Notes under the pieces: generated by a model | Database searches by the model: none | What the model saw: only the letters and a program-made list of their open reading frames with translations | Told to the model about the DNA's origin: nothing | Position numbers and translations under genes: made by a program | In this document: in pieces, positions 2,931 through 62,660 of the stretch | Layout of the letters: each line of letters begins with the position of its first letter | How positions within the stretch are numbered: position 1 is the stretch's first letter | NCBI GenBank assembly: GCA_965222955.1 | Contig: OZ244974.1 | Span: 1,920,226-1,984,225, forward strand | Direction: 5' to 3' | Length of the DNA stretch: 64,000 nt | Source of the DNA: Hyphomicrobiales bacterium | GTDB taxonomy: Bacteria > Pseudomonadota > Alphaproteobacteria > Rhizobiales > CBDCVD01

Positions 2931-3263
2931 AGAGCGTGTCAGGTCTTGATAGAACCATTCTGACGGAGCGATTTTGCGACAAGGCCAAGCAAAGTCTCGC
3001 AGGATATAGTGGGGCTGTTTGCAAGAGACTTAAGGTTCGTATTGGATCAGCCTGGCGTTAGCTGTACCCGTCTTGCCAGGGGCAATGCTAACGCCATAAA
3101 GCGATTGCCCTGAAATCTATAGCAAAAGCGCCCGTCCCTTCGGGTTTGCCGATTGGCGGACGCCCACACCCAAGCCGCTCTCGAGAGATGGATAAACATC
3201 GCTCTTCGATCGCCTTGAGCCTGGGTATCGCCTCGCCAATCGGGAAACGAAAATTGCTTCAGT
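2931..3263 (-). repeat. Family D MITE-like element, long form, one terminus missing
   Basis: It starts with the TIR agagcgtgtcaggtcttgatagaa. The interior is the reverse complement of 23236-23509. It carries an extra roughly 75-bp hairpin insert at about 3047-3122. The far TIR is replaced by an R98 copy. Confidence 0.8.
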
Positions 3264-3367
3264 TATACCAGCGGTATTGGCGTTTTGTACACGCTGACTT
3301 GTGTATAGTGTTGATAAGACAACGGTTTTAAGCCAAGTCAGGAGTCAAACGCAAAGCCCCTTGGTAT
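3264..3367 (+). repeat. R98 element, single copy
   Basis: tataccagcggtattggcgttttgtacacgctgacttgtgtatagtgttgataagacaacggttttaagccaagtcaggagtcaaacgcaaagccccttggtat. Confidence 0.9.
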
Positions 3368-3441
3368 TAAAAACTGAAAAGCTCCAGAAGCCCGACCTGG
3401 GTGGTGGGTGCGGGCCAGGTTTCCTGACTGAATGGGAAAAA

Positions 3442-3495
3442 GTTGAATGTGAAAAAGTCCCTCGGCTTCGCCCCGGTCCACTTTTCCCATTCAAC
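3442..3495. repeat. Family B hairpin element
   Basis: gttgaatgtgaaaaagtccctcggcttcgccccggtccacttttcccattcaac is a near-perfect palindrome. Confidence 0.85.
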
Positions 3496-3603
3496 GATTT
3501 AAGGTGCGACCGGCTGCACGTTTGCCCCCCGCGCCGGTCGCACCCCATGTCATGAATGATCTTGCTGGATCAGATCAGCGGATCATGACATGTTGTCTGT
3601 TTG

Positions 3604-5428: not shown

Positions 5429-5817
5429 TGCACAGCCAATGCACGTTTATGCGCCGATTCATCGAAAACGTGCCCCCCCTACATGTGACGCTCGTGGAAC
5501 GCAATTGACATTTGGGTCCCGTTTGCCGCCGGGGGCGCAAATGTAGAAATCGAACCATTAACAGGTGCCTAACAATTATCTTACTGTTATTCAACAATTT
5601 CCATGTGCAGGAAATCTCTCCCATGGCGCTTTTATCGCCGCTTGAATGTCGTTTTGCCGCAACATCACGCCGATTGGAAAACATAATTTACGGACCACGC
5701 GAAGCGTTCTGCACAACCAGCGCACGTTCATGCTCAGATTGGTTGAAAAGCATGCGCCGGTGTTATTTGTGACATCAATATGTGTCTAACAATTATCTTA
5801 CTGTTATTCAACAATTT
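5429..5817 (+). repeat. Two-block direct duplication in the amt upstream region
   Basis: The 32-bp block ctaacaattatcttactgttattcaacaattt is identical at 5569-5600 and 5786-5817. A related block starts tgcacagccaatgcacgtttatgc at 5429 and tgcacaaccagcgcacgttcatgc at 5710. Confidence 0.8.
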
Positions 5818-6140
5818 TGATGCACAGGAAACGTATCCCGTAGCGTTGTTGACCCATTTTGGCACAATGCCACTGCCGTTGAAACAACACAATCGTATCG
5901 GGGCTCGTTGCGGTGCGGGATTGAAGCCTCCCATCGCAGGAGGTTCTGAGGAGCAAAACGCACTTGGCGAGCGCGCCTTGCATATGGGTCTGGATGGAGC
6001 CGATGGGGTTCGGCGAGGCAGGTGATTCTTGACACACAGGCGGTATCGCCGTCTGTTTGTGATGGAATCGGTTGGTTTGGCGGTTTTTGGCGGACAGGCC
6101 CTTGATGCCGGCGGGATGATTGATGCACGCTGATGCGCGC

Positions 6141-6373
6141 TAGAGCCTTTCAGCAGGTTGTTCCTGAGGCAGGCAAACCGGAAGGGGGTACCTCTTGCGC
6201 CATTGCCCCCAGGATGGCCACCTGCACCCGACAGGTTTACCAGGGACAACCTGTACCTGTCAGGTGCGGATGGATGGCCGGGTATGGCCATCCTTGCGGC
6301 CCTTGCGGCCCTTGCCGCCAGGGTGGCCTTCAGACCTGTCCGTCCCGGGCATAACCTGCTGAAAGATCACAAC
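6141..6373. repeat. Family C MITE-like element, full form
   Basis: Outer arms are tagagcctttcagcaggttgttcctgaggcagg and cctgtccgtcccgggcataacctgctgaaagatcacaac. The inner palindrome is cacccgacaggtttaccagggacaacctgtacctgtcaggtg. Confidence 0.85.
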
Positions 6374-6470
6374 TCGCCATGATAACGTTCTCGTGGCCCT
6401 TTGAATGTGACCTGACACGCTCCAGAACGAGGCCAGCGGCAACGGGGACGCAAATGTCACATGTGTTTCG

Positions 6471-6974: not shown

Positions 6975-9467
6975 GTGGCGCAAGGGGGAGCGGTTGTGCC
7001 GGAGTCCATGGGAGAGAAATACAGGGAGGTCATGGCCCTTGCCGGTCATGTGAACGGCGCATCGGATGGTGTGCGTACACTTTGGCTTGGCTTTCTCGCC
7101 TTTATGACGTTTCTGGCTCTGGCGGTGTTTGGCACCACCCACGAGGATTTGTTTCTTGAGACGCCTCTGGCGCTGCCGCCGCCGGTATCCGTTGAGATCA
7201 ATCTATGGGGATTTTACTTCATTGCGCCGCTTATTCTGGTGGTGATTCACGGCTATCTGTTGTTAAAGCTGCTTTTTCTCAAATACGTTTATGATGACTT
7301 CGAGGCGCAGGTCAGGAAAGATATTGGCCTTCGTATTGACAGAGTGCAGGCGCGCAAGCACTTGAACATCACCCTTTTTACGCGCGTTCTCATGTCCCTT
7401 GGCGGTTTTATCAGTGACGCGCCCTTGAACGGGGCGGAATGGAGACGCCGTTATACTGTTCGGGTGGCGACGCTGTTTTTGGCGGTGACGGTGATCGTAC
7501 TCCCATTGAGCGCGCTGCTGTTTATCTGGATAAGGTTTCTGCCCTATCAGTATGAGGCGGCGACCCTGTGGCACCGGGTTTTGTTCGCCATCGACATGAT
7601 CGCCATTGTCTGGGCGGTATGGATGATTGCCGGTTTTCGCCTTCTGGCGCGGATGTGTCTTGTCCTGTTTGTTTTATTGATTCTAGCTGCATTATCGATA
7701 CGCCATGACGTAATCGGTCGTCTTGTTCAGTTTGCTCAGAAGGGAGGGGAAATGCCGGACTGGCAGCAATGGCTGATTGTAGTCATCCTCTTCGCTATTG
7801 TTCTCGCGGGTATCGTTTTTCGAAAGTTACTTGGAAATGTGATTCGTTATATTTTCAAGATTGTCGAACGCGTTTGGACTGATTTTGTAGCTCTTCTGTC
7901 CGATGGATTCCGGCACTTTGCGGAACAGTCTTTTTCGTATTTTGTCAAAACGATGGGGTTGTTTTTCATTTTCTGCGGTCCGGCGCTGGTTGTTTTGCCG
8001 GCGTGGTTCCTGTTTACCTTTCCACGGGAGTGCTTGCAGGATGATCGAAAATGGGATGATGGGCGCTATCAATGGACTGGCGGCGAGGCGTGGTGCTGGG
8101 ACAGGAATGCCGTCTCAACGGGACTTGTCGATACACTCAAATTGCGGCGTATCACAGACCGCAAGCGTAGCACAGATGGTAAGGAGGCTCCAAAAATGGA
8201 CTTTGGTACGGATGCCCTTCTTTGGCCACCGGTGACGCTGAACGTGGCATCGCAACAGATTGTTTATCATCGCTTTGTGCGTGAGCAGGGCGGTGACCTG
8301 ACGGCGTTAAAACGCACCCTGAATTTGGAGGGCCGTTCTTTTGTCGGCGCTGATCTGCAGGACGTGGACTTGCGAAAAGCCTATCTGGTTGGCGCTGACT
8401 TACGCGGCATCATCGGTAAAAACCTGAACCTGAAAGGCGCAGCATTGCAGGGGAGCCACCTGCAGGCGGCGAATATGCGGGAGGCCGAACTGCAGGGGGC
8501 GGATTTGCTGTTTGCTAACCTGCAGGAGGCGGAATTGTGGGAGGCCCAGCTGCAGGGGGCGAATTTGCGGTCGGCCCGCTTGCAGGGGGCGAAGTTGGGT
8601 TCTGCCCGCCTGCAGGGGGCGAATTTGCGGGGTGCTAACCTGCAGGGGGCGGATTTGCTGTTTGCTAACCTGCAGGGGGCGGATTTGGAGGGTGCCCAGC
8701 TGCAGGGGGCGGATTTGCTGTTTGCTAACCTGCAGGGGGCGAATTTGGAGTGGGCTGAGCTGCAGGGGGCGGATTTGGTGGGTGCCCACCTGCAGGGGGC
8801 GGATTTGCTGTTTGCTAACCTGCAGGGGGCGAATTTGGTGGGTGCCTACCTGCAGGGGGCGCTAATGTACAAAACGGCCCTGTGGCGGGCGGAACCGCCA
8901 GGGGACCTAAAGGGCGTAACAGGTGTTGCGCTGGACTTTACCCCCCTGAACAATGCCGCAAGCCAGATAAGTGCATGGCTGAAAAACGTGCCTGATGGAG
9001 ACGAAAAAGCAGCAAATGGAAACACAAAAAAAGCAGCAAAAGAACGCCTTGAAGTGCTGACGCGCAGTGCGAAACAACAGGACAAGGAAAACAAAAAGCG
9101 CTGGGAGGCTCAGACGGCCATCAACATCTCCGATTCAGAGGAGCGCAACAAGGCCATAGATGATCATTTAAAGGCGCAATATGACATATATAAAGCGCTC
9201 TTGTGTCCCCCAGGTGACCAGATCGGCGATGAACGCAAAAATTTCCTGGTCGAAACCGATGCCATCGCCACAGCCGTGACAGAGCGATGGTCACTAATTT
9301 TGCAGTTACGCAAAGCGTCGCTCAATGTCCAGGCAAGCGCCGTCGAAAAATTCTTGTACGAGCTGGCTTTTAAAACACTCCAAACCTATAGCAAGCTTTT
9401 GCAACATATCCGCGCCTGCCGGGCGGAAAAGCCCGCCACGGCCAACACCGCGGTAACCAACGAATAA
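6975..9467 (+). CDS. Polytopic membrane protein with a C-terminal pentapeptide-repeat domain
   Basis: 830 aa. There are about 7 hydrophobic helices in the first 390 aa. About 190 aa of A(D/N)LxG-type pentapeptide repeats follow (ADLQDVDLRKAYLVGADLRG ... ANLQGANLVGAYLQGA). The protein ends in a Lys/Glu-rich helical tail. The start is uncertain: GTG 6975 or ATG 7008. Confidence 0.75.
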   Translation: MAQGGAVVPESMGEKYREVMALAGHVNGASDGVRTLWLGFLAFMTFLALAVFGTTHEDLFLETPLALPPPVSVEINLWGFYFIAPLILVVIHGYLLLKLLFLKYVYDDFEAQVRKDIGLRIDRVQARKHLNITLFTRVLMSLGGFISDAPLNGAEWRRRYTVRVATLFLAVTVIVLPLSALLFIWIRFLPYQYEAATLWHRVLFAIDMIAIVWAVWMIAGFRLLARMCLVLFVLLILAALSIRHDVIGRLVQFAQKGGEMPDWQQWLIVVILFAIVLAGIVFRKLLGNVIRYIFKIVERVWTDFVALLSDGFRHFAEQSFSYFVKTMGLFFIFCGPALVVLPAWFLFTFPRECLQDDRKWDDGRYQWTGGEAWCWDRNAVSTGLVDTLKLRRITDRKRSTDGKEAPKMDFGTDALLWPPVTLNVASQQIVYHRFVREQGGDLTALKRTLNLEGRSFVGADLQDVDLRKAYLVGADLRGIIGKNLNLKGAALQGSHLQAANMREAELQGADLLFANLQEAELWEAQLQGANLRSARLQGAKLGSARLQGANLRGANLQGADLLFANLQGADLEGAQLQGADLLFANLQGANLEWAELQGADLVGAHLQGADLLFANLQGANLVGAYLQGALMYKTALWRAEPPGDLKGVTGVALDFTPLNNAASQISAWLKNVPDGDEKAANGNTKKAAKERLEVLTRSAKQQDKENKKRWEAQTAINISDSEERNKAIDDHLKAQYDIYKALLCPPGDQIGDERKNFLVETDAIATAVTERWSLILQLRKASLNVQASAVEKFLYELAFKTLQTYSKLLQHIRACRAEKPATANTAVTNE
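8455..8870 (+). repeat. Coding tandem repeat (30-bp unit) within the pentapeptide domain
   Basis: Reiterated ctgcagggggcggatttgctgtttgctaac (LQGADLLFAN) with minor variants. A CTGCAG occurs at each unit. Confidence 0.9.
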
Positions 9468-12204: not shown

Positions 12205-12424
12205 AGAAAATCTCCCTGATGAACGGTTGAAAGATCAAAATCGCCGTCAACTGCAATAATACCGGCGGTATAGGCTTTGTGGACGCGCCGGCTGGTGTCC
12301 TGCCGGTGTAACATCACGCGTTAATGCCGGGTTGTGAGCGACCGGCAAGCGCTTTTGGTGTAATCCTGAAGAAACAGCGCAAGGCGAAGGCGCGCCGTCC
12401 GGATAATGTGTCGTACAACCGGAA

Positions 12425-15395: not shown

Positions 15396-15490
15396 GAGCC
15401 CATCCTGACTTAAACAAAGGGACGTCTGCATCGCCGTTGATAGCCAAGCACAGTACGAACTGCAATCAAAAAGATCGCTGGCGGCCGTGG

Positions 15491-15550
15491 GTGTGATCTT
15501 TCAGCAGATTGTGCCCGGGACGGGCGATCCTGAAGCGACCCGTTGCGCCT
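15491..15550 (+). repeat. Family C, outer-left arm only
   Basis: gtgtgatctttcagcagattgtgcccgggacgggcgatcctgaagcgacc. Confidence 0.75.
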
Positions 15551-15611
15551 TTTGGAAGCGCCATTTTGGAAGTAAGAGAATGGATCGAATTCGCGGAAGC
15601 CGCCAAATGAT

Positions 15612-16203
15612 TTATACCAGCGGTATTGGCGTTTGTACGCGCTGACTTGTGTGTCGTGCTGATAAGACAACGGTTGTAAACCGGGTCAGGAGTCAAACGC
15701 AAGTCCCTTGTATGCCAGCGGTATTGGCGTTTGTACACGCTGACTTGTGTGTCGTGCTGATAAGACAACGGTTGTAAACCGGGTCAGGAGTCAAACGCAA
15801 GTCCCTTGTATGCCAGCGGCATTGGCGTTTGTACGCGCTAACTTGTGTGTCGTGCTGATAAGACAACGGTTGTAAACCGGGTCAGGAGTCAAACGCAAGT
15901 CCCTTGTATGCCAGCGGTATTGGCGTTTGTACGCGCTAACTTGTGTGTCGTGCTGATAAGACAACGGTTGTAAACCGGGTCAGGAGTCAAACGCAAGTCC
16001 CTTGTATGCCAGCGGTATTGGGGTTTGTACGCGCTGACTCGTGTGTCGTGCTGATAAGACAACGGTTGTAAACTGCGCCGGGAGTCAAACGTAAGTCCCT
16101 GTATACCAGCGGTATTGGGGTCGGTACGCGCTGACTTGTGTGTCGTGCTGATAAGACAACGGTTGTAAACCGGGCCAGGAGTCAAACCAAAGCCCCCTGG
16201 TAT
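15612..16203 (+). repeat. Tandem array of 6 head-to-tail R98 units (period 97-99 bp)
   Basis: Unit starts (tat[ag]ccagcgg) are at 15612, 15710, 15809, 15907, 16005 and 16102. The units abut with no unique spacers. Confidence 0.95.
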
Positions 16204-16268
16204 TACAGATCGGTGTCCGTGTTTTCGCGACCCTGGTTCCTACTCTTGTTTGCGGCCTTTCTCTGAGC

Positions 16269-17393
16269 CTAATTCTGAGCCGCTTTAGCCTTGTTCCGGG
16301 CCTTGTTCCGGGCCTTGTTCCTGGCTTTGCTCCGGGCCTTGTTCTGAGACGCTTTAGCCTTATTTCGGGCCTTGTTCCTGGCTTTGCTCCGGGCCTTGTT
16401 CTGAGACGCTTTAGCCTTATTTCGGGCCTTGTTCCTGGCTTTGCTCCGGGCCTTGTTCTGAGCTGCTTTTGCCTTCCTCCGGGCACTTTTGGCCTTACTC
16501 TGCGCGGCGCGCCTTGTCTTTTTTTCTGCTGTCCTGGTCTGGCGTGTGGCCTGCTTCCTTGCCTGTTTGGCGGCCCTTGCGGTACGCCTTGCTTCGCGTT
16601 GCGCCCTGGCAGCGGTACGTTTCGCCGCCTTTGTGGCCAGTTTTTCCGCCCGCGCAGCGGCCCGGTCGGCCTTACGCGCTGCACGTTTTGCGACCCTCTC
16701 GGCCTTCAGCGCCTCCCGCCTGGCCTTGCGTGCGGCCTGTCTGGCGCGTTTGGCAACGGCGCGCTGATTGCGAACGGAAGCATTTCGCCGCGTCTTGCGC
16801 TTTTTGACGCGCCGCTTTTTGCCGCCGGATTTTACGCGCAATCCGCGAAATACGCCTGATTTTGTTGTCGCCCGCTCGCCCTTGCGCAAGACGGTCGTTT
16901 CGCCACTGGCGTTGTCGTCGACTTCAACCGCGCCGCGGTTAACGTCAACCCGCGAGTTTTTCGCATTGACGCTAACCAGGAAACGGGTTCCCTTGACGGC
17001 CGCCACCAGATGGGGCGTATGCACGGAAAAATGCTGCGCCTTTCGCTTCTTTACCTCGTATTCAACCTTGCCGCGCGCCTGAATAATGATCGTATTCGCC
17101 ATCGAGCGGTTTTCGGGTGAAATCGTGATATGCGATCCCGGCGCCAGCATGATAAGTTCCTTGCCGCGCTTGATTACCGCGCGGGCGCGCTCACCGGTTG
17201 CCACTTTATCGCCGGCACGCAGTTTCATACCGGTGCGCGACTTGTACCACGTCTTGCCTTTCGCCGGAAAAACGTGCACATCTCCGGTGGTACGGCCCAG
17301 TATCCAGTCGGCGGCCGGCGCCATCGATACCGGTGCAAGCGCGCAGAACGCAACAAGGAAAAGACGAGATATGAGGGGAACTTTACAGCGCAT
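16269..17393 (-). CDS. Secreted FecR-domain protein with a roughly 190-aa Lys/Arg/Ala-rich repeat tail
   Basis: 374 aa. Signal peptide LFLVAFCALAPVSMAPAADW. FecR-like core RTGMKLRAGDKVATGERARAVI...VHTPHLVAAVKGTRFLV. A polycationic tail follows, ending in reiterated KAKASQNKARSKARNKARN. Confidence 0.75.
   Translation of the reverse strand: MRCKVPLISRLFLVAFCALAPVSMAPAADWILGRTTGDVHVFPAKGKTWYKSRTGMKLRAGDKVATGERARAVIKRGKELIMLAPGSHITISPENRSMANTIIIQARGKVEYEVKKRKAQHFSVHTPHLVAAVKGTRFLVSVNAKNSRVDVNRGAVEVDDNASGETTVLRKGERATTKSGVFRGLRVKSGGKKRRVKKRKTRRNASVRNQRAVAKRARQAARKARREALKAERVAKRAARKADRAAARAEKLATKAAKRTAARAQREARRTARAAKQARKQATRQTRTAEKKTRRAAQSKAKSARRKAKAAQNKARSKARNKARNKAKASQNKARSKARNKARNKAKASQNKARSKARNKARNKARNKAKAAQN
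16273..16470 (-). repeat. Coding tandem repeat (57-bp, 19-aa unit) in the FecR-protein tail
   Basis: ttctgag unit starts are at 16273, 16342, 16399 and 16456. Confidence 0.85.
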
Positions 17394-17919
17394 GGATCAC
17401 CAACAGTTTTTTCTTTTGTGCAGGCTTCGAATGGCCTGATAGTTTATTGTTTGGCGGACCCTCGATCCGATCGGGCGCGATAGTTTCGATTTTCTCCGAC
17501 AACCTCTTGCACAATCGCGATCGGGTATCCCTGGTACCGGCGGCATTTGCTCACAAATTCGCTGCGTGGCGTATTGCCTTGATAAAACCCTTTGTAACGC
17601 CACACTGTTTGTCATGGCTATGCGGCTTTGGTCTGAGCCGTGAAATTTGAGGAAAACGCCAATACGAATTAAATCATAGGTTTATTTTCTTCAAATTTCG
17701 CCTTATGCTAGTATCAGTCCGTTAACAGAAACTTACCCCAATAGTATAACCTCGATTGTTACGGCGTTTCGGGGGCGCGATTATGGGAAATTGACGAAGA
17801 ATGCATTAATTTGAACCAATACCGAGATAAATATGTTATATATTTCAATGTTTTAAAATTGTTGGAGATTGCCCGTCGACATCTTAACCATGACCACATA
17901 TAGTTCCGTCACGCGCGCG

Positions 17920-18036
17920 TTGTGACCTTTCAGCCCGTTGTATCCAGGACAGGCAAATCTGAAGCGATACCTATTGTGGCCGTGGCGAGCAGCACCCGAC
18001 GGGTTTCATCGAGAACAACCTGTTGCAATTGCACAC
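17920..18036 (+). repeat. Family C (outer-left arm plus inner-right arm)
   Basis: gtgacctttcagcccgttgtatccaggacaggcaaatctgaag ... cacccgacgggtttcatcgagaacaacctgttgcaattgcacac. Confidence 0.8.
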
Positions 18037-18116
18037 CCGGGCGCGGGGGTATCGGGCGCTGGGGTATATTGTCGAGACGCCCAGCGGGTTTATGTACTAT
18101 GCCAAAAGCGCTTATA

Positions 18117-18415
18117 ATACCAGGGGGCTTTGCGTGTGACTCCTGGCTCAGATTAAAACCGTTGTTTTATCAGCACGATACACAAGTCAGCGTGTACAAA
18201 ACGCCAATACCGCTGGTACACAGGGACTTACGTGTGACTCCTGGCTCAGATTAAAACCGTTGTCTTATCAGCACGATACACAAGTCGGCGTGTACAAAAC
18301 GTCAATACCGCTGGTATACAGGGACTTACGTGTGACTCCTGGCTTGGTTGAAAACCGTTGCCTTATCAGCACGACACACAAGTCAGCGCGTACAAAACGC
18401 CAATACCGCTGGTAT
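18117..18415 (-). repeat. Tandem array of 3 R98 units, inverted relative to 15612-16203
   Basis: Three consecutive reverse-complement units, each ending ...gtacaaaacg[ct]caataccgctggta. Confidence 0.95.
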
Positions 18416-18458
18416 CAGTCCGCCGGGTTGCCCCAGGGACTGATTTGTCCTTGGTGTT

Positions 18459-18510
18459 CACTGGGAAAAAGCAGACCGAGGCGAAGCCGAGGGACTTTTT
18501 CACATTCAAC
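18459..18510. repeat. Family B hairpin (with the longer left extension from about 18420)
   Basis: cactgggaaaaagcagaccgaggcgaagccgagggactttttcacattcaac. The upstream ccgccgggttgccccagggactgatttgtcc is shared with the copies at 58941 and 33996-34038. Confidence 0.85.
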
Positions 18511-18585
18511 GCAATACATCGTATTGCCCGGTGCCTGATGCGGATACCGCTGATACAACGGCCTGCGAACGGTTATGAGGTCACC

Positions 18586-18792: not shown

Positions 18793-18795
18793 TTT

Positions 18796-18848
18796 GGTGA
18801 ATGTGAACATTTCCTCGGCTTCGCTTGGGTGTACTTTTCACATTCAAC
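18796..18848. repeat. Family B hairpin
   Basis: ggtgaatgtgaacatttcctcggcttcgcttgggtgtacttttcacattcaac. Confidence 0.8.
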
Positions 18849-18879
18849 CAATGCATTTCACAGCATTATCAGAGCGCTA

Positions 18880-23018: not shown

Positions 23019-23044
23019 TTTGCACCATGTTCGTTACGCCAGAT

Positions 23045-23674
23045 GTGATCTTTCAGCAGGGTGTTCCCGGGACAGGCAGGTCTGAAGGTACATCTCTTGC
23101 GCCCTTGCCACCTTTGCCGCCAGGGAGGCCGTACCGGGCCACTCATCCGCACCCGACAGGTTTACCAGGGACACCCTGTTGAAATTACACATCTAGAGCG
23201 TGTCAGGTCTTAATAGAAACAGAGTTTCTTCTATTAGAGCGTGTCAGGTCTTAATAGAAGCAATTTTCGTTTCTCGATTGGCGAGGCGAACCACGCCCAA
23301 GGCGATCGAAGAGCGATGGCGACCCATCTCTCGAGAGCGGCTTGGGGGTGGGCGTCCGCCAATCGGAAACCCGAAGGGACGGGCGCTTTTGCACCAATAC
23401 GAACCTTAAGTCTCTTGAAAATAGCCCCACTATATCCTGCGAGACTTAAGGTTCATCTTGGTGCAAAATCGCTCCGTCAGAATGGTTCTATTAAAACCTG
23501 ACACGCTCTAGCGCTATGGCATTTTCGCACAAGCCGGATAGCCAGGTGGGTAATTTCAACAGCTTGTTCTCGAAAAGGCCATGACCAGAGGGTTGACCCG
23601 AACCGGCCCTGCCGCAGCTACGGCGGCAAGAGAATCCCTTCAGATTTGCCCGTCCCGGGAACAACGCCGAAAGG
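23045..23674. repeat. Nested repeat: a family C element split by a family D element, inside the ABC operon
   Basis: The C left half is at 23045-23192. D is at 23195-23509, comprising a partial mini copy at 23195-23235 and then a full copy with the TIRs agagcgtgtcaggtcttaatagaa and ttctattaaaacctgacacgctct. The C right half is at 23548-23674. Confidence 0.85.
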
Positions 23675-27365: not shown

Positions 27366-27605
27366 TCAGAGTTTTCCATGGTTCTGGCGGGACGGCCGCT
27401 ATCAACGGGTTTAAGTCTGGCAGCTGTTTAATTGCAGCAGGTTGTTCCTGGCAAACGCATCGGGTAAAGATGACCGTTCATCTGATCATGGCGCGAACCG
27501 GCCTCCCAGTGGTTCCATTAACACCCGTGGTTCTATTAATAAGTGACCCACAGCGCGCAGACAAGGGCAAAATCGGATCGCGCGATCATCCCCGTGGCGG
27601 ATAAT

Positions 27606-28027
27606 GCGTTGATCGTGAAGAAAGGTGCTTCGCTCCGCTCAGCGCACTTTTCTTCATTTAAAACAATGAGAAAGCAACGATTAGGAAGGCGCGGCGCTTT
27701 GTTTTCCCCTGGGCTTGTTGCAAGGTTTTGGCGCATTTGCGCGTAAAGCCCGGGTGTCGCCTTTCAGTAGGTTGTTCTCGAAATCTCCGTCGGGTGCTGC
27801 TGGCCATTCATCTGATCATTAGAGATGTCACGTCCGGTTTGCCTGTACCGGGAACAACCTGCTGGAAGATCACAACCAGGGGGCTTTGCGTTTGACTCCT
27901 GGCCCGGCTTACAACCGTTGTCTTATCAGCACGACACACAAGTCAGCGCGTACAAAACGCCAATACCGCTGGTATTGTTGGGAAAAAGTGGACCGAGGCG
28001 AAGCCGAGGGACTTTTTCACATTCAAC
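27606..28027. repeat. Pile-up of four abutting repeat families (E, C, R98, B)
   Basis: E is at 27606-27746, C at 27754-27876, R98 (minus orientation) at 27875-27975, and B at 27977-28027. Confidence 0.85.
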
Positions 28028-28049
28028 TAATACCTCCCGCCGAAGCGCT

Positions 28050-30470: not shown

Positions 30471-30508
30471 GTGGTTATTCCTCGTAACGTCGCCCCCGGG
30501 CGTTTCGG

Positions 30509-30657
30509 TTGTGATCTTTCAACAGATTGTTGCAAGGACGGGCAAATCCGAAGCGATCCCTGGTGCGGCCCTTGCCGCAGATGGCGAGCAGCAAGACCAT
30601 ACCGGGTCATTCATCTGATCATCGCTTTTTTCGAAAACAACCTGTTAAGGGTTACAA
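30509..30657 (+). repeat. Family C element inside the TelA-like operon spacer
   Basis: ttgtgatctttcaacagattgttgcaaggacgggcaaatccgaag ... attcatctgatcat ... cgaaaacaacctgttaagggttacaa. Confidence 0.85.
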
Positions 30658-30856
30658 ACCTGGTGGTTCGATTCCAATATTTGCACCTTCCAAGCGCAGC
30701 CTTGCATGCACATGCCGCAATCAAGATTCCACTGGCAGCGCCATATCGTCAACGCACGTCACGCGAAACCGCTTCCGCCTGATCGTCCGTAGGGCATCAC
30801 CGCGCCGGGCTTGTCGACGTTCTCCCTTACGCTTCTCCGCTGGCCATGGCCGATCC

Positions 30857-32176: not shown

Positions 32177-32279
32177 ATACCAGCGGTATTGGCTTTTGTA
32201 CACGCTGACTTGTGTATCATGCTGATAAAACAGCGGTTTTTAAACCAAGCCAGAAATCACACGCAAAGTCCCTTGGTAT
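32177..32279 (+). repeat. R98 element, single copy
   Basis: ataccagcggtattggcttttgtacacgctgacttgtgtatcatgctgataaaacagcggtttttaaaccaagccagaaatcacacgcaaagtcccttggtat. Confidence 0.9.
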
Positions 32280-33624: not shown

Positions 33625-33670
33625 TGTGGCGTTCCCGATAGAGTGGTGGAGGACGATGGCGCGCTCTAGC

Positions 33671-34297
33671 TGTGATCTTTTAGCAGGTTGTTATCGGGAC
33701 GGGCAAATCTGGAGGGATACCTGGTGCGGCCCTTGCCGCAGATGGTGGCCAGCAGCACCCGATGGGTTTTCGAGAACAACCTGTTGAAATTACACATCCA
33801 ACTGCCGCTTTCAGTAATACGCGTTTACATAACAATCGCGCCAGGCGCAATTATTGTCGCGTTCGGGATGTTGTTGAGAGCAGGGCCGCAAAGCCGCCCG
33901 GTCGCCTGACCGGCCGAGCCCGTCGCCGGTTGTGTAGTTTCAACAGTTGAATTTGAAAAAGCCCCTCGGCTTCGCCCCGGTCCACTTTTTCCCAATAAAA
34001 TAAGGACAAATCAGTTCCCGGGGCGGCCCGGCGGACTGATTTGGCATTAAAACCTTGCAATAAAGCCCAAGCGAAAACAAAGCGCCACACCTTCCTGAGC
34101 GCTGTTTTCTCATTGTTTTAAATGAGGAAAAGTACACGCAAGCGGCGCGAAGCACCTTTCTTCGCGATCAACTCAACAGGGTGTTGCCGAAAAAACCATC
34201 AGATGGATGGTGGGGTATGGCCTCCCTGACGGCAAGGGCGCAAGAGATGTACCTTCAGACGTGCCTGTCCTGGACACACCCTGTTGAAAGGTCACAA
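33671..34297. repeat. Pile-up of repeat families (C, B-long, E, C)
   Basis: C is at 33671-33797, B with extension at 33946-34038, E (minus orientation, truncated) at 34045-34172, and C (inverted) at 34172-34297. Confidence 0.85.
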
Positions 34298-34338
34298 ACG
34301 GTGCGCCGATACAGCCGGTACGGAAGAATTTGCCCTTG

Positions 34339-38543: not shown

Positions 38544-38631
38544 GAGCGTGTCGGATTTGTTAGCCAAGTCATTGATTTTATTGAATTCCTTATTTTTCTA
38601 ACAGACCTGTTTCATAGTAAAATCAATGACT

Positions 38632-38735
38632 TATACCAGCGGTATTGGCTTGTTGTACACGCTGACTTGTGTATCGTGTTGATAAGACAACGGTTTTTAA
38701 CCAAGCAAAGAGTCAAACGCAAAGGCCCTTGGTAT
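38632..38735 (+). repeat. R98 element, single copy
   Basis: tataccagcggtattggcttgttgtacacgctgacttgtgtatcgtgttgataagacaacggtttttaaccaagcaaagagtcaaacgcaaaggcccttggtat. Confidence 0.9.
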
Positions 38736-39001
38736 TAGGCAGTTAGCGCCCATCAAACCTGACAGACTGCCAGAGCGTCGGGCGTTTAAGTTGCACCAAT
38801 AACCCCGGTCATGGATTAAGGACCTTTTTCTCATGCTTTATTGGTTCTTTCTCATCGAGCCGGACGTTCCGGTGTAAAGGCGGATCCAGCCATTTATCTG
38901 ATCATAAGCCATAACCGGCGGCTGCGGTGTGTCAAGGGCGCTTCGCGCCGCTTCCAGTGGTTCATAAACCCTTGACAGCGCTGGATAAATCTAACACCTC
39001 C

Positions 39002-39100
39002 AATGATCAGATGAATGGCCACCTGCACCCGATGGGTTTACCAGGGACAACCTGTTGAAATACACCGGGTGTGATCTTTCAGCACGTTGTTCCCAGGACG
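39002..39100. repeat. Family C arms (inner-right arm, then an unrelated outer-left arm)
   Basis: aatgatcagatgaatggccacctgcacccgatgggtttaccagggacaacctgttgaaatacac, then gtgtgatctttcagcacgttgttcccaggacg. Confidence 0.8.
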
Positions 39101-39137
39101 CGAAACGCCGTTTCTTGCAAAGCCGCAAGATGCGTCG

Positions 39138-50876: not shown

Positions 50877-50922
50877 GGCTGCATCGCAGGGCCCATGCCC
50901 ACTATTGCGATCAGGCAGGATA

Positions 50923-51187
50923 GTCGAATGTGAAAAAGTCCCTCGTCTTTGCCTTGGTCTAATTTTCCCATTCAACTATAGCGTCGGGCGTTTAAATTGC
51001 AACAATAGCCCCGGTTCCGGATGAGAGAAAGGCGAAAATGGGGCCTTGGACAGTGGTCTCGCTATCCTTTTTCAGCCCATTGTCCCTGATAAACCCATCG
51101 GGTACAGGGGGCCATTCTGGCGGCAAGGGTGTTCAGAGATATTACTTCCGGTGTGCCTGTCCCGGGAACAACCTGCTGAAAGATCGC
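50923..51187. repeat. Repeat cluster (B hairpin, a 45-bp motif shared with 38772-38815, and family C)
   Basis: B is at 50923-50976. atagcgtcgggcgtttaaattgcaacaatagccccggt is at 50978-51015. C is at 51066-51187. Confidence 0.8.
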
Positions 51188-51189
51188 AT

Positions 51190-51573
51190 CTAAAGGGATG
51201 TATCGAACGCACCCGTGATATGCCGCGGCCAGGTGCGGGGCGCCATGGCGACCACATCAAAGCGCAAATCCCGGGCCGCCCAGGCCGGATTGGCAGCAAG
51301 CCAGCCGTTGGCAGCCGCCACAATGCGCGCCCGCTGGCGCGCCGTGAGCGCGTTAAGGGCCTCATCCATGGTGCGCCGCGCCTTGACCTCCACAAAGGCC
51401 ACCAGGTGCCCGCGCCGGGCAATGAGATCAATCTCGCCATAAGTGTTACGATAGCGCCGCGCCAGGATCCGATAGCCCTTTAGACGCAGCATGATCATGG
51501 CGCCCATCTCCGCCGCAACGCCGGTATCGTAGGCCCGTCTGTTTGATGTTTTGTGTCCTGCGCTTTCAGACAT
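51190..51573 (-). CDS. yraN: YraN-family (UPF0102) endonuclease-like protein
   Basis: GVAAEMGAMIMLRLKGYRILARRYRNTYGEIDLIARRGHLVAFVEVKAR. Confidence 0.85.
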   Translation of the reverse strand: MSESAGHKTSNRRAYDTGVAAEMGAMIMLRLKGYRILARRYRNTYGEIDLIARRGHLVAFVEVKARRTMDEALNALTARQRARIVAAANGWLAANPAWAARDLRFDVVAMAPRTWPRHITGAFDTSL

Positions 51574-55751: not shown

Positions 55752-55769
55752 GGAACCGGCCCTGCTGCG

Positions 55770-55835
55770 GCCGGGCCGCAAGAGATGTACTCCCGGGTTT
55801 GCCTGTCCCGGAAACAACCTGCTGAAAGATACCAA
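55770..55835 (-). repeat. Family C, outer-right arm only
   Basis: ccgcaagagatgtactcccgggtttgcctgtcccggaaacaacctgctgaaagataccaac abuts the msrP stop codon. Confidence 0.75.
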
Positions 55836-56819
55836 CTAGCGATACAAATGATCGCCTTTCATATCCTTGTACAAATGCGCCACCTGCTCGCTGTAACCGT
55901 TGAATAAAAGGGTCGGAACACGCTCGCGAGTGTGCAGGACGCGCTCGCTCTTCTGACTCCAGCGCGAATGGGGAACTTCCGGATTAACATTCGCCCAAAA
56001 GCCGTATTCGCCCGCCCCGGTTTCCTCCCAAAACGTTACCGGCCGCTTCCTAACGAAGGAAAACCGCACAATAGACTTAATGGACTTAAAGCCGTATTTC
56101 CACGGCACCGCCAGGCGTAAGGGCGCGCCCATCTGCTTGGCGACAGGCTTGCCGTAAGCGCCGCAGGCAAGAAAAGCCAGATCGTTCGTCGCCTCCGCCA
56201 TGGTCAGCGCCTCCACATAGGGCCACGGCAGCCAGCTCTGCTTTTGATTGGAGGCGACCTGCGGATCGTGAAACGTTTCCATGCGCACATATTTCGCCGA
56301 CGACAATGGTTTGGCAAACGCCACCAGCTTTCTCAAGGGAAAGCCCGACCAGGGAATGGTCATCGACCACGCCTCGACGCAGCGATGGCGGTACAGGCGC
56401 TCCTCAATGCCCATTTTCGCGATCAACGTGGCGGCATCGATGGTAATATCGCGTTCGACTTCCCCATCAATCGTTATCGACCAGGGTACAACGCGCAGCG
56501 CCTGCGACGCCTTCGCAATCGACTTGTGGGAGCCGAATTCATAAAAGTTGTTGTACATCAGATTGATTTCTTCCGGCGTCACATCGCGATCGAGCGTAAA
56601 GGCGCTATTGCGTTCGGCCGGATAGAGCGCCGCCGTGGGGCGCTCCGCAGTGGTATCCAAAGGGGTGTCTTTTGCATAGGGCTTGGCAAAAGCGCCAACC
56701 GCAATCGAACCGGCGGCAACGCCGCCACCGGAGAGAATGTCACGGCGCGAGAAGTAAATTTTCTGCGGTGTGACATCGCGGTGGCGAATGTCCCATACTT
56801 TGGCCTGTTTGATAAGCAT
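55836..56819 (-). CDS. msrP: Protein-methionine-sulfoxide reductase catalytic subunit (YedY/MsrP)
   Basis: From ATG 56819: MLIKQAKVWDIRHRDVTPQKIYFSRRDILSGGGVAAG (Tat signal). ...NNFYEFG...HRCVEAWSMTIPWSGFPL. Confidence 0.9.
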   Translation of the reverse strand: MLIKQAKVWDIRHRDVTPQKIYFSRRDILSGGGVAAGSIAVGAFAKPYAKDTPLDTTAERPTAALYPAERNSAFTLDRDVTPEEINLMYNNFYEFGSHKSIAKASQALRVVPWSITIDGEVERDITIDAATLIAKMGIEERLYRHRCVEAWSMTIPWSGFPLRKLVAFAKPLSSAKYVRMETFHDPQVASNQKQSWLPWPYVEALTMAEATNDLAFLACGAYGKPVAKQMGAPLRLAVPWKYGFKSIKSIVRFSFVRKRPVTFWEETGAGEYGFWANVNPEVPHSRWSQKSERVLHTRERVPTLLFNGYSEQVAHLYKDMKGDHLYR

Positions 56820-58694: not shown

Positions 58695-58751
58695 GGGGGG
58701 TATTTTGGCGTAAAGCATCTGTTAACCATAATGAAACAGCTTGGGGCTACT

Positions 58752-59029
58752 CTGTTGATCGTGAAGAAAAGTCCTTTGCTCCGCTTGCGTGTACTTTTCT
58801 TCATTGAAGCAATGAGAAAACAAGGTTCAAGAAGGTGCGGCGCTTTGTTTTCGCCCGGGCTTATTGCAAGGTTTTGGCGCATTTGCGCGTAATACCTTGC
58901 AATTTCCGATCATGATCGGTTCCCATGGGTGTCAAATCGATCCGCCGGGCTACCCCAGGGACTGATTTATCCCTATTTTATCGGGAAAATTAGACCGAGA
59001 CGAAGCCAAGGGACTTTTTCACATTCAAC
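58752..59029. repeat. Repeat cluster (family E, then family B long form)
   Basis: E is at 58752-58892, ending ttgcaaggttttggcgcatttgcgcgtaa. B-long is at 58941-59029. Confidence 0.85.
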
Positions 59030-59108
59030 TACTCCGTGATCGCCTTATCCCGATTTGTCACCCGTCAGCCTACGCCAACGGAACATACGTGTTTTGGAAT
59101 GTCCGCCC

Positions 59109-59894: not shown

Positions 59895-60019
59895 GTTGAA
59901 TGTGAAAAAGCAGACCGAGGCGAAGCCGAGGGGCTATCTCACATTCAACGGTTTAAAACCATTGTCTTATCAGCACGATACACAAGTCAGCGTGTACAGA
60001 AAGCCAATACCGCTGGTAT
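59895..60019. repeat. Family B hairpin fused to a truncated R98 copy
   Basis: B is at 59895-59949. A 3'-truncated R98 (minus orientation) is at 59950-60019. Confidence 0.85.
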
Positions 60020-62505: not shown

Positions 62506-62544
62506 TGATGCCTCCTGGACAGGTTTTCACGGGCGCTCCTGATT

Positions 62545-62660
62545 GTGTTCTTTCAGCAGGTTGTGTCCGGGACGGACAAGCCTGAGGGGCACTTCTTGCG
62601 GCTATAGCTGCGGCGTGGCCGGTTTGGATCATTCATCTCACAGGTTTTTTCAGAGCGGCC
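62545..62660 (+). repeat. Family C element (degenerate right half)
   Basis: gtgttctttcagcaggttgtgtccgggacggacaagcctgagg ... ggatcattcatctcacagg. Confidence 0.7.

Follow-up and report, generated by a model that had tools for sequence, protein, structure and literature searches.

Correia- or IS630-type MITEs duplicate TA, and Harbinger elements duplicate TWA. In Brucella, the repeats Bru-RS1 and Bru-RS2 reportedly go back to Halling & Bricker 1994. They are related palindromic repeats of 103-106 bp and are favoured insertion sites of other mobile elements (PMC10800456, PMC3163539, PMC2266754). The features that define a MITE have been listed (PMC3184786), and among insertion sequences the IS1031 group is described as having three-nucleotide insertion sites, with a duplicated TAA for IS1237 (PMC2516522). 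For tandem arrays derived from transposons, the usual model is that a first dimer forms and the array then grows by unequal exchange (PMC5932611).

Here we describe R98, a repeat found as single copies and as tandem arrays in a 64-kb window, by which we mean the whole stretch of DNA that was analysed. R98 is most probably a family of MITEs, non-autonomous DNA transposons, a reading to which we assign a probability of about 80%. Compared with the published list of MITE features (PMC3184786), R98 has the small size, the terminal inverted repeats, the target duplications and the lack of a transposase ORF, and it is also multi-copy and dispersed, with signs of past mobility. A consistently stable long stem-loop is the one sequence-based feature on the list that its copies did not all show.

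Copies of R98 and other repeats in the window

The window is an ordinary chromosomal region of ~57% G+C that includes gatB, amtB, purC/purK, ABC transporters, ctaA and mgtE. Searching it by BLAST and nhmmer with the R98 consensus yielded 14 units at 8 loci and, in addition, a 15th, diverged copy and a decayed relic. A 25-nt core of R98 has 8 matches at three or fewer mismatches in the window, compared with 0 in 100 shuffles. The consensus given in the preliminary description was correct, and the copies it listed are all present, with coordinates right to within 2 nt (BLAST, nhmmer, TRF). The loci are as follows.

38634..38734, + strand: full-length copy of subfamily A (TACCAGCGG...GCCCTTGGTA), with a direct repeat of TTA on either side (38631-38633 and 38735-37); 88 nt past the stop of a TPR gene, with convergent genes on either side
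3266..3366, + strand: full-length A copy, flanked by TTA at 3263-3265 and 3367-3369; convergent genes on either side
15615..16202, + strand: array of 6 units, head-to-tail, period 98, flanked by TTA (15612-14) and TTA (16203-05); it lies between the stop of a FecR-domain gene and the start of gatB and is antisense to both genes
18118..18414, - strand: array of 3 units, head-to-tail, flanked by TGA and TTA (element orientation)
27875..27974, - strand: copy without its last 4 nt and 3' flank; at the 3' terminus the copy breaks off against an unrelated ~115-nt repeat (...GAAGATCACAAC), and a 56-nt hairpin repeat adjoins its 5' end without a gap
32178..32278, + strand: full-length A copy, flanked by CAA and TAA, in the spacer after an aminotransferase gene
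59950..60018, - strand: copy truncated after ~nt 70 (the 3' 30 nt are gone), with a 5' flank of TTA; the place of its 3' part is taken by a 56-nt hairpin repeat (59895-59950)
12260..12360, + strand (12258-12359 in the searches): diverged copy of subfamily B, flanked by TAA and TAA; 62-70% identical to the B copies of a related MAG
17535-17589, + strand: decayed relic of the R98 5' half (nhmmer E = 4e-4)

The last two entries were absent from the earlier list, and they show that the R98 family is a long-standing resident. All of the previously listed copies had been placed between genes, and on our gene map, which draws on ORF length and GC3 with Pfam as a check, every copy does lie in a spacer. 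With a period of 98 nt, which is not divisible by 3, the ORFs that run through the arrays are artefacts, and we rejected a coding repeat as an explanation. The density of R98 is ~1 locus per 7 kb in the window and in the related MAG alike, which extrapolates to several hundred copies, or ~1.5% of a 3.4-Mb genome.

To define the element we aligned 21 complete units, taken both from the window and from the 51 kb of the related MAG covered by loci L001, L002 and L004. R98 proper is TACCAGSGG...CCSCTGGTA, 101 nt in length, with individual units that span 98-104 nt and contain no ORF. The termini TACCAGSGG and CCSCTGGTA are near-perfect inverted repeats in every complete copy, as the preliminary description had claimed for the ends, and the terminal stem forms in folds of single copies. 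The ends had been drawn as TATACC...GGTAT; of these, TACCAG...CTGGTA belongs to the element, but the outer T and A are part of a flanking 3-nt duplication. A unique central core lies between the arms. When the halves of the subfamily A consensus are aligned, imperfect inverted arms continue ~25 nt further inward; in that of subfamily B, the inverted match is confined to the terminal 11 nt.

R98 falls into two subfamilies: the 13 units of A in the window have a mean identity of 86% among themselves and the 7 units of B in the related MAG one of 88%, compared with 65% between A and B. Between subfamilies the 5' 60 nt of R98 are much better conserved than the 3' 40 nt, and the conserved part comprises ATACC-AGC-GGTAT, TACRC-N8-GTGTR and a TGATAA block. 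Substitutions had earlier seemed to concentrate in central and loop regions. They are instead concentrated in the 3' 40 nt, and few parts of the element are as well conserved as the central block GTGYTGATAAGACAACGG. This asymmetric 5' conservation is not predicted by a model of symmetric transposon ends, and it counts against the MITE reading.

R98 is one of several repeats in the window. A second abundant intergenic repeat, of ~115 nt with inverted ends (TGTGATCTTTCAGCAGGTTGTTCCCGGGAC...CCAGGGACAACCTGT), occurs at at least 12 loci, often adjoining R98, and is probably another MITE family. Its positions in the window, together with one in locus L001 of the related MAG, and those of the 56-nt hairpin repeat are as follows.

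1041-1096, 6137-6380, 15488-15552, 17915-18023, 23038-23179, 27413-27494 and 27762-27883: ~115-nt repeat
30506-30615, 33667-33785, 34202-34305, 39015-39110, 51051-51197, 55757-55843 and 62540-62611, and ~2600-2670 in L001: ~115-nt repeat, continued
3441-3498, 18456-18511, 18794-18851, 27973-28028, 33945-34002, 50922-50979, 58975-59030 and 59895-59950: 56-nt hairpin repeat

The entry at 6137-6380 consists of two ~115-nt units in inverted order. The window spacer at 30471-30856, which contains one unit, is only 45 bp long at its orthologous position in the related MAG (13384-13428 of L004). The 56-nt repeat is a strong hairpin (GTTGAATGTGAAAAAG, ~24 nt, CTTTTTCACATTCAAC), several copies of which lie directly past stop codons; three of the four copies folded gave z-scores of -3.6 to -5.2, and the stretch at 27971-28030 gave -1.7. 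A repeat of ~150 nt is present at 27599-27746 and 58745-58892 (83-88% identical to each other) and also in the related MAG, at ~2290-2415 of L001, beside an R98 copy; it had no Rfam match, and it folds no better than shuffles. Three further pairs appear to be intergenic: an inverted pair of 82 nt (3143-3224 and 23291-23372, 89%), a direct pair of 43 nt (38774-38816 and 50980-51022, 86%) and a direct pair of 78 nt whose members are 217 nt apart (5556-5633 and 5773-5850, 81%). Tandem repeats also occur within genes, with periods of 57 nt and 12 nt in the 3' part of the FecR-domain gene (16273-16475) and with a period of 30 nt inside the gene for an 830-aa pentapeptide-repeat protein (8458-8893).

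Target sites, a related genome and the transposition reading

We compared the flanks of R98 at the 12 loci, in the window and in L001, L002 and L004, at which both ends are present. At 8 of the 12, the same triplet stands just outside both termini (TTA five times, TGA twice and TAA once); at the other four, which as imperfect duplications count against the MITE reading, the flanking triplets are one mismatch off. TNA makes up 25 of 28 flanks, compared with a background of 4.3%. When right flanks were shuffled among loci, at least eight matching pairs were obtained with p = 0.015, although this test is of limited power because TTA dominates the flanks. The middle base of the triplet matches as a direct repeat at 10 of 12 loci and as an inverted repeat at 1 of 12; because the match is direct and not inverted, the triplet is a duplication that lies outside the terminal inverted repeat. 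We rejected an IS630-type duplication of TA, as it would leave the matching third base on both sides unexplained. We also rejected as a filled and empty site pair the window segments 27590-28045 and 58736-59050, whose shared part is another repeat family.

The nearest relative, available for comparison, is the Hyphomicrobiales MAG OZ245032.1, whose GatB and aminotransferase are 80% and 71% identical to the window proteins. It was the only match among 185,579 GTDB species genomes in an exact scan with a degenerate R98 core pattern. The core pattern and family-wide patterns had no match in JGI metagenomes and none in IMG/VR, A and B copies had no match among PLSDB plasmids (blastn, up to E = 1), and a search of the full-text literature for fragments of the sequence returned only a chance match in a yeast paper. 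R98 was absent from 21 kb of each of two more distant relatives (L003 and L005).

In the related MAG we identified 7 complete R98 units at 5 loci, plus one truncated copy and one fragment. No insertion site is common to the window and the relative. Near gatB, for example, the six-unit array of the window is upstream of the gene, and in L002 of the relative one B copy is downstream of it. A further case is a syntenic block, shared by the window and L004, of an aminotransferase gene, a gene for a 394-aa protein, a DUF6384 gene and a gene for a 466-aa protein: in the window, the spacer after the aminotransferase gene contains one A copy, which is flanked by CAA and TAA, and in L004 it contains two B copies, at other positions and with flanks TGA/TGA and TTA/TTA. 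Because both subfamilies occur in both genomes, these insertions into the same spacer were independent. The B copies of the window are all decayed, and the relative has one A copy, which is truncated. This distribution indicates that lineage-specific subfamily bursts, of A in the window genome and of B in the related MAG, were followed by decay. The A-type copy of the relative is 79-86% identical to the window copies, compared with 71-80% for the proteins; identity at this level needs constraint or horizontal transfer, and it counts against the MITE reading.

At 17589-17690 of L002, a B-type R98 is located between lptE and holA, within a row of leuS, lptE and holA. The lptE ORF as called ends ~15 nt into this copy, such that the element supplies the stop codon.

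The preliminary description had offered a MITE as one of three options, and it is this option that the evidence supports: the termini are inverted, the flanks are 3-nt TNA duplications, the element has no ORF, and insertion sites differ between relatives, to which are added the lineage-specific subfamily bursts, the decayed relics and the copies that are truncated or interrupted. From these features we infer the following course of events. A transposase encoded elsewhere in the genome would bind both ends of R98 and insert the element, by a 3-nt staggered cut, at TNA sites, mostly TTA; repair of the cut would leave the direct TNA repeat on either side. After a burst, copies decay, become truncated, or come to be abutted or interrupted by other repeat families. 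Since a 3-nt TNA/TAA duplication is found in the IS1031 and IS427 groups (PMC2516522), we propose that the enzyme acting in trans may be a DDE-type transposase of the IS5 family, IS1031/IS427-like. Among the 40 largest ORFs of the window, searched with Pfam, there was no transposase, and no autonomous element with R98 termini was present in the 115 kb made up of the window and 51 kb of the relative. IS5-family ends begin with G; because those of R98 begin with TA, assignment of the transposase to this family is weak. A terminus search of the window revealed no further pairs of R98 ends.

Tandem arrays, folding and competing explanations

The two arrays of the window were recovered by TRF as 98-nt repeats, with 5.9 copies and 95% matches at 15613-16187 and with 2.9 copies and 92% matches at 18133-18415. 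Array units are 86-99% identical, and the four central units of the six-unit array are 97-99% identical. The inner junctions of both arrays read ...AAGTCCCT(T)GTA/TRCCAG, with the slash marking the boundary between units; no spacer and no TNA separate the ends. In a B dimer in L001, a single base lies between them (GGTA-A-TACC). The variant 3' end AAGTCCCT is common to all non-terminal units of both arrays, and AAAGCCCC is the 3' end of array-terminal units and of singletons. Either a multimer may have been copied from one site to the other, or sequence may have been exchanged between the arrays. Because the six-unit array is flanked by TTA/TTA as a whole, it represents one insertion site at which the array grew. 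The arrays would most likely have arisen by one dimer-forming event, followed by expansion in place through unequal exchange or slippage.

The two arrays are inverted with respect to each other, 1.9 kb apart, and bracket the FecR-domain gene (16269-17393), an arrangement like that of a composite transposon. On the + strand, the bracketed segment (15613-18415) is flanked by TTA and TCA, an imperfect match.

That R98 is more than a selfish MITE is an idea that we consider unlikely. It could take any of three forms. In the first, the multimers would themselves be mobile, and the abutted-end junction common to both arrays would be the trace of a circle- or dimer-type transposition intermediate. 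In the second, the conserved 5' 60 nt, with their two hairpins and the TGATAA block, would be a host-factor or RNA module under selection. In the third, R98 would be exchanged horizontally among co-resident Hyphomicrobiales lineages.

A related proposal accepts the MITE origin and holds that some copies or arrays, such as the six-unit array upstream of gatB, have since been adopted by the host in a regulatory, mRNA-stabilising or VNTR role. We judge this unlikely. The arrays do sit in a 5' leader or an operon spacer, the two subfamilies share a strongly conserved 5' block, and other bacterial MITEs supply promoters, terminators or processing sites (PMC3184786). Nothing in the sequence requires such adoption, however: the arrays follow no pattern in position or orientation, their units diverge, and no transcription signals were found.

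The preliminary description had also stressed the multi-hairpin potential of R98, and we counted its proposed helices over 20 units. In these, 98% of cells are paired in ATACC-AGC-GGTAT, 84% in GCGTTTG/CAAACGC and 72% in CTGAC/GTCAG. The inner hairpin CGGTT-GTA-AACCG has 78% of cells paired and is absent from subfamily B. For all of the proposed helices together the value is 86%. For some A copies the fold of lowest energy is a hairpin over the whole length (z = -2.7 and -5.0); the folds of B copies are different.

On such grounds R98 might be taken for a family of small RNAs or for a cis-acting structured RNA, with its function in the 5' hairpins or in the long hairpin, a proposition that we find highly improbable. 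Both ATACC-AGC-GGTAT and TACRC-N8-GTGTR, the latter with A-U/G-U alternation, are 97-98% paired in the two subfamilies; the helix 18-25/85-91 has compensatory changes (U-A, A-U and G-C at one pair, G-C/U-G at another); and one copy, on the minus strand, folds with z = -5.0. Most single copies nevertheless fold no better than shuffles (z of -0.4 to -1.8), and the consensus fold across subfamilies, at -8.3 kcal/mol, is weak and limited to the two small 5' hairpins plus a weak long-range helix (columns 51-58/88-96) that is mostly G-U. In the 20 units, 9 of 27 pairs are changed on both sides. Those that recur (pairs 20-89 and 23-87) split A from B and the remainder are single-sequence cells; a split of this kind would also be produced by co-evolving transposon arms. 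Rfam 15 had no match to R98 at the gathering threshold and only one, at chance level, at E <= 10. There are no promoter-like sites in or beside the copies beyond marginal consensus matches, the terminator-like matches are likewise marginal, and orientation is mixed (between co-directional genes, 4 copies are sense and 5 antisense), all of which speaks against the earlier option of a small RNA. Moreover, flanking 3-nt duplications and insertion sites that are not shared between genomes would not be expected of an RNA gene. A dedicated RNA function is thus unlikely, and the multi-hairpin appearance stems mostly from long inverted arms, which make the transposon an imperfect palindrome.

The remaining option in the preliminary description was a REP-like element, that is, a REP/BIME-type extragenic palindrome maintained by the host and either spread by a RAYT, a single-strand transposase of the IS200/IS605-like kind, or retained because a host protein (IHF or gyrase, for example) binds to it. 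R98 does resemble these repeats: it is intergenic and palindromic, has a small terminal hairpin, forms tandem clusters and clusters with other palindromic repeats, and its invariant TGATAA block is, by eye, one mismatch from the IHF core. We regard this origin as very unlikely all the same. The unit is 101 nt with target-site duplications, compared with a palindrome of 20-40 nt for REP; single-strand transposition by Y1 enzymes makes no duplications, and R98 has direct ones of 3 nt. Its arrays are head-to-tail, without the alternating orientation of REP/BIME, its insertion sites differ between related genomes, and neither a RAYT nor another transposase was found in the window or in the related loci. 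Two further classes were rejected: an integron attC, given that R98 occurs on both strands between housekeeping genes and that no integrase was found, and an IS200/IS605-type element, given that both flanks of R98 are duplicated.

Comparison with known systems

R98 is a genuine, previously undescribed MITE family of an ordinary kind and not a new RNA or regulatory system. It is mildly unusual in its density, its asymmetric 5' conservation, its identity across genomes and its abutted-end multimers. With it, an uncultured Hyphomicrobiales lineage gains a very dense MITE family. R98 opens no new mechanism; it offers a small and clean example of subfamily bursts that differ between sister genomes, of repeated colonisation of one spacer and of the passage from a dispersed transposon to tandem arrays. 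R98 is worth masking in annotation, where it gives rise to spurious ORFs and mimics sRNA candidates, and its arrays could be used as strain markers.

The nearest analogue from the same order is Bru-RS1/Bru-RS2 of Brucella, a comparison made by description only; the R98 core pattern had no match in Brucella among GTDB representatives. Other repeats abut or truncate some of the R98 copies, in keeping with the role of Bru-RS as insertion sites, whereas target-site duplication and tandem multimers are undescribed for Bru-RS (PMC10800456, PMC3163539, PMC2266754) and R98 has both.

With regard to the target site, R98 resembles the IS1031 and IS427 groups of the IS5 family, and PIF/Harbinger with its Tourist MITEs, in that 3-nt sites of the TNA/TAA type are duplicated. 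With regard to its arrays, it resembles those explained by the double-insertion model (PMC5932611) and the mycobacterial MIRU, in which a dispersed mobile unit is also found in short head-to-tail intergenic arrays. The R98 junctions differ from those of double-insertion arrays (PMC5932611) in having 0-1 nt between ends and not a shared target duplication, and the R98 arrays, compared with transposon-derived arrays and MIRU, are only 2-6 units long.

In overall form, R98 resembles Correia/NEMIS of Neisseria, ERIC, RUP, Nezha and Chunjie (PMC3184786), with which it shares a length of ~100 nt, terminal inverted repeats and a non-coding core. As is the case for bacterial MITEs more broadly (PMC3184786), it has short target duplications, many intergenic copies, some of them inside operons, and, in some A copies, the potential to fold into a long stem-loop. 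Nothing related to its sequence was found in Rfam, PLSDB plasmids, JGI metagenomes or IMG/VR. It differs from Correia- or IS630-type MITEs in that it duplicates 3 nt (TNA), and it forms head-to-tail multimers with abutted ends.
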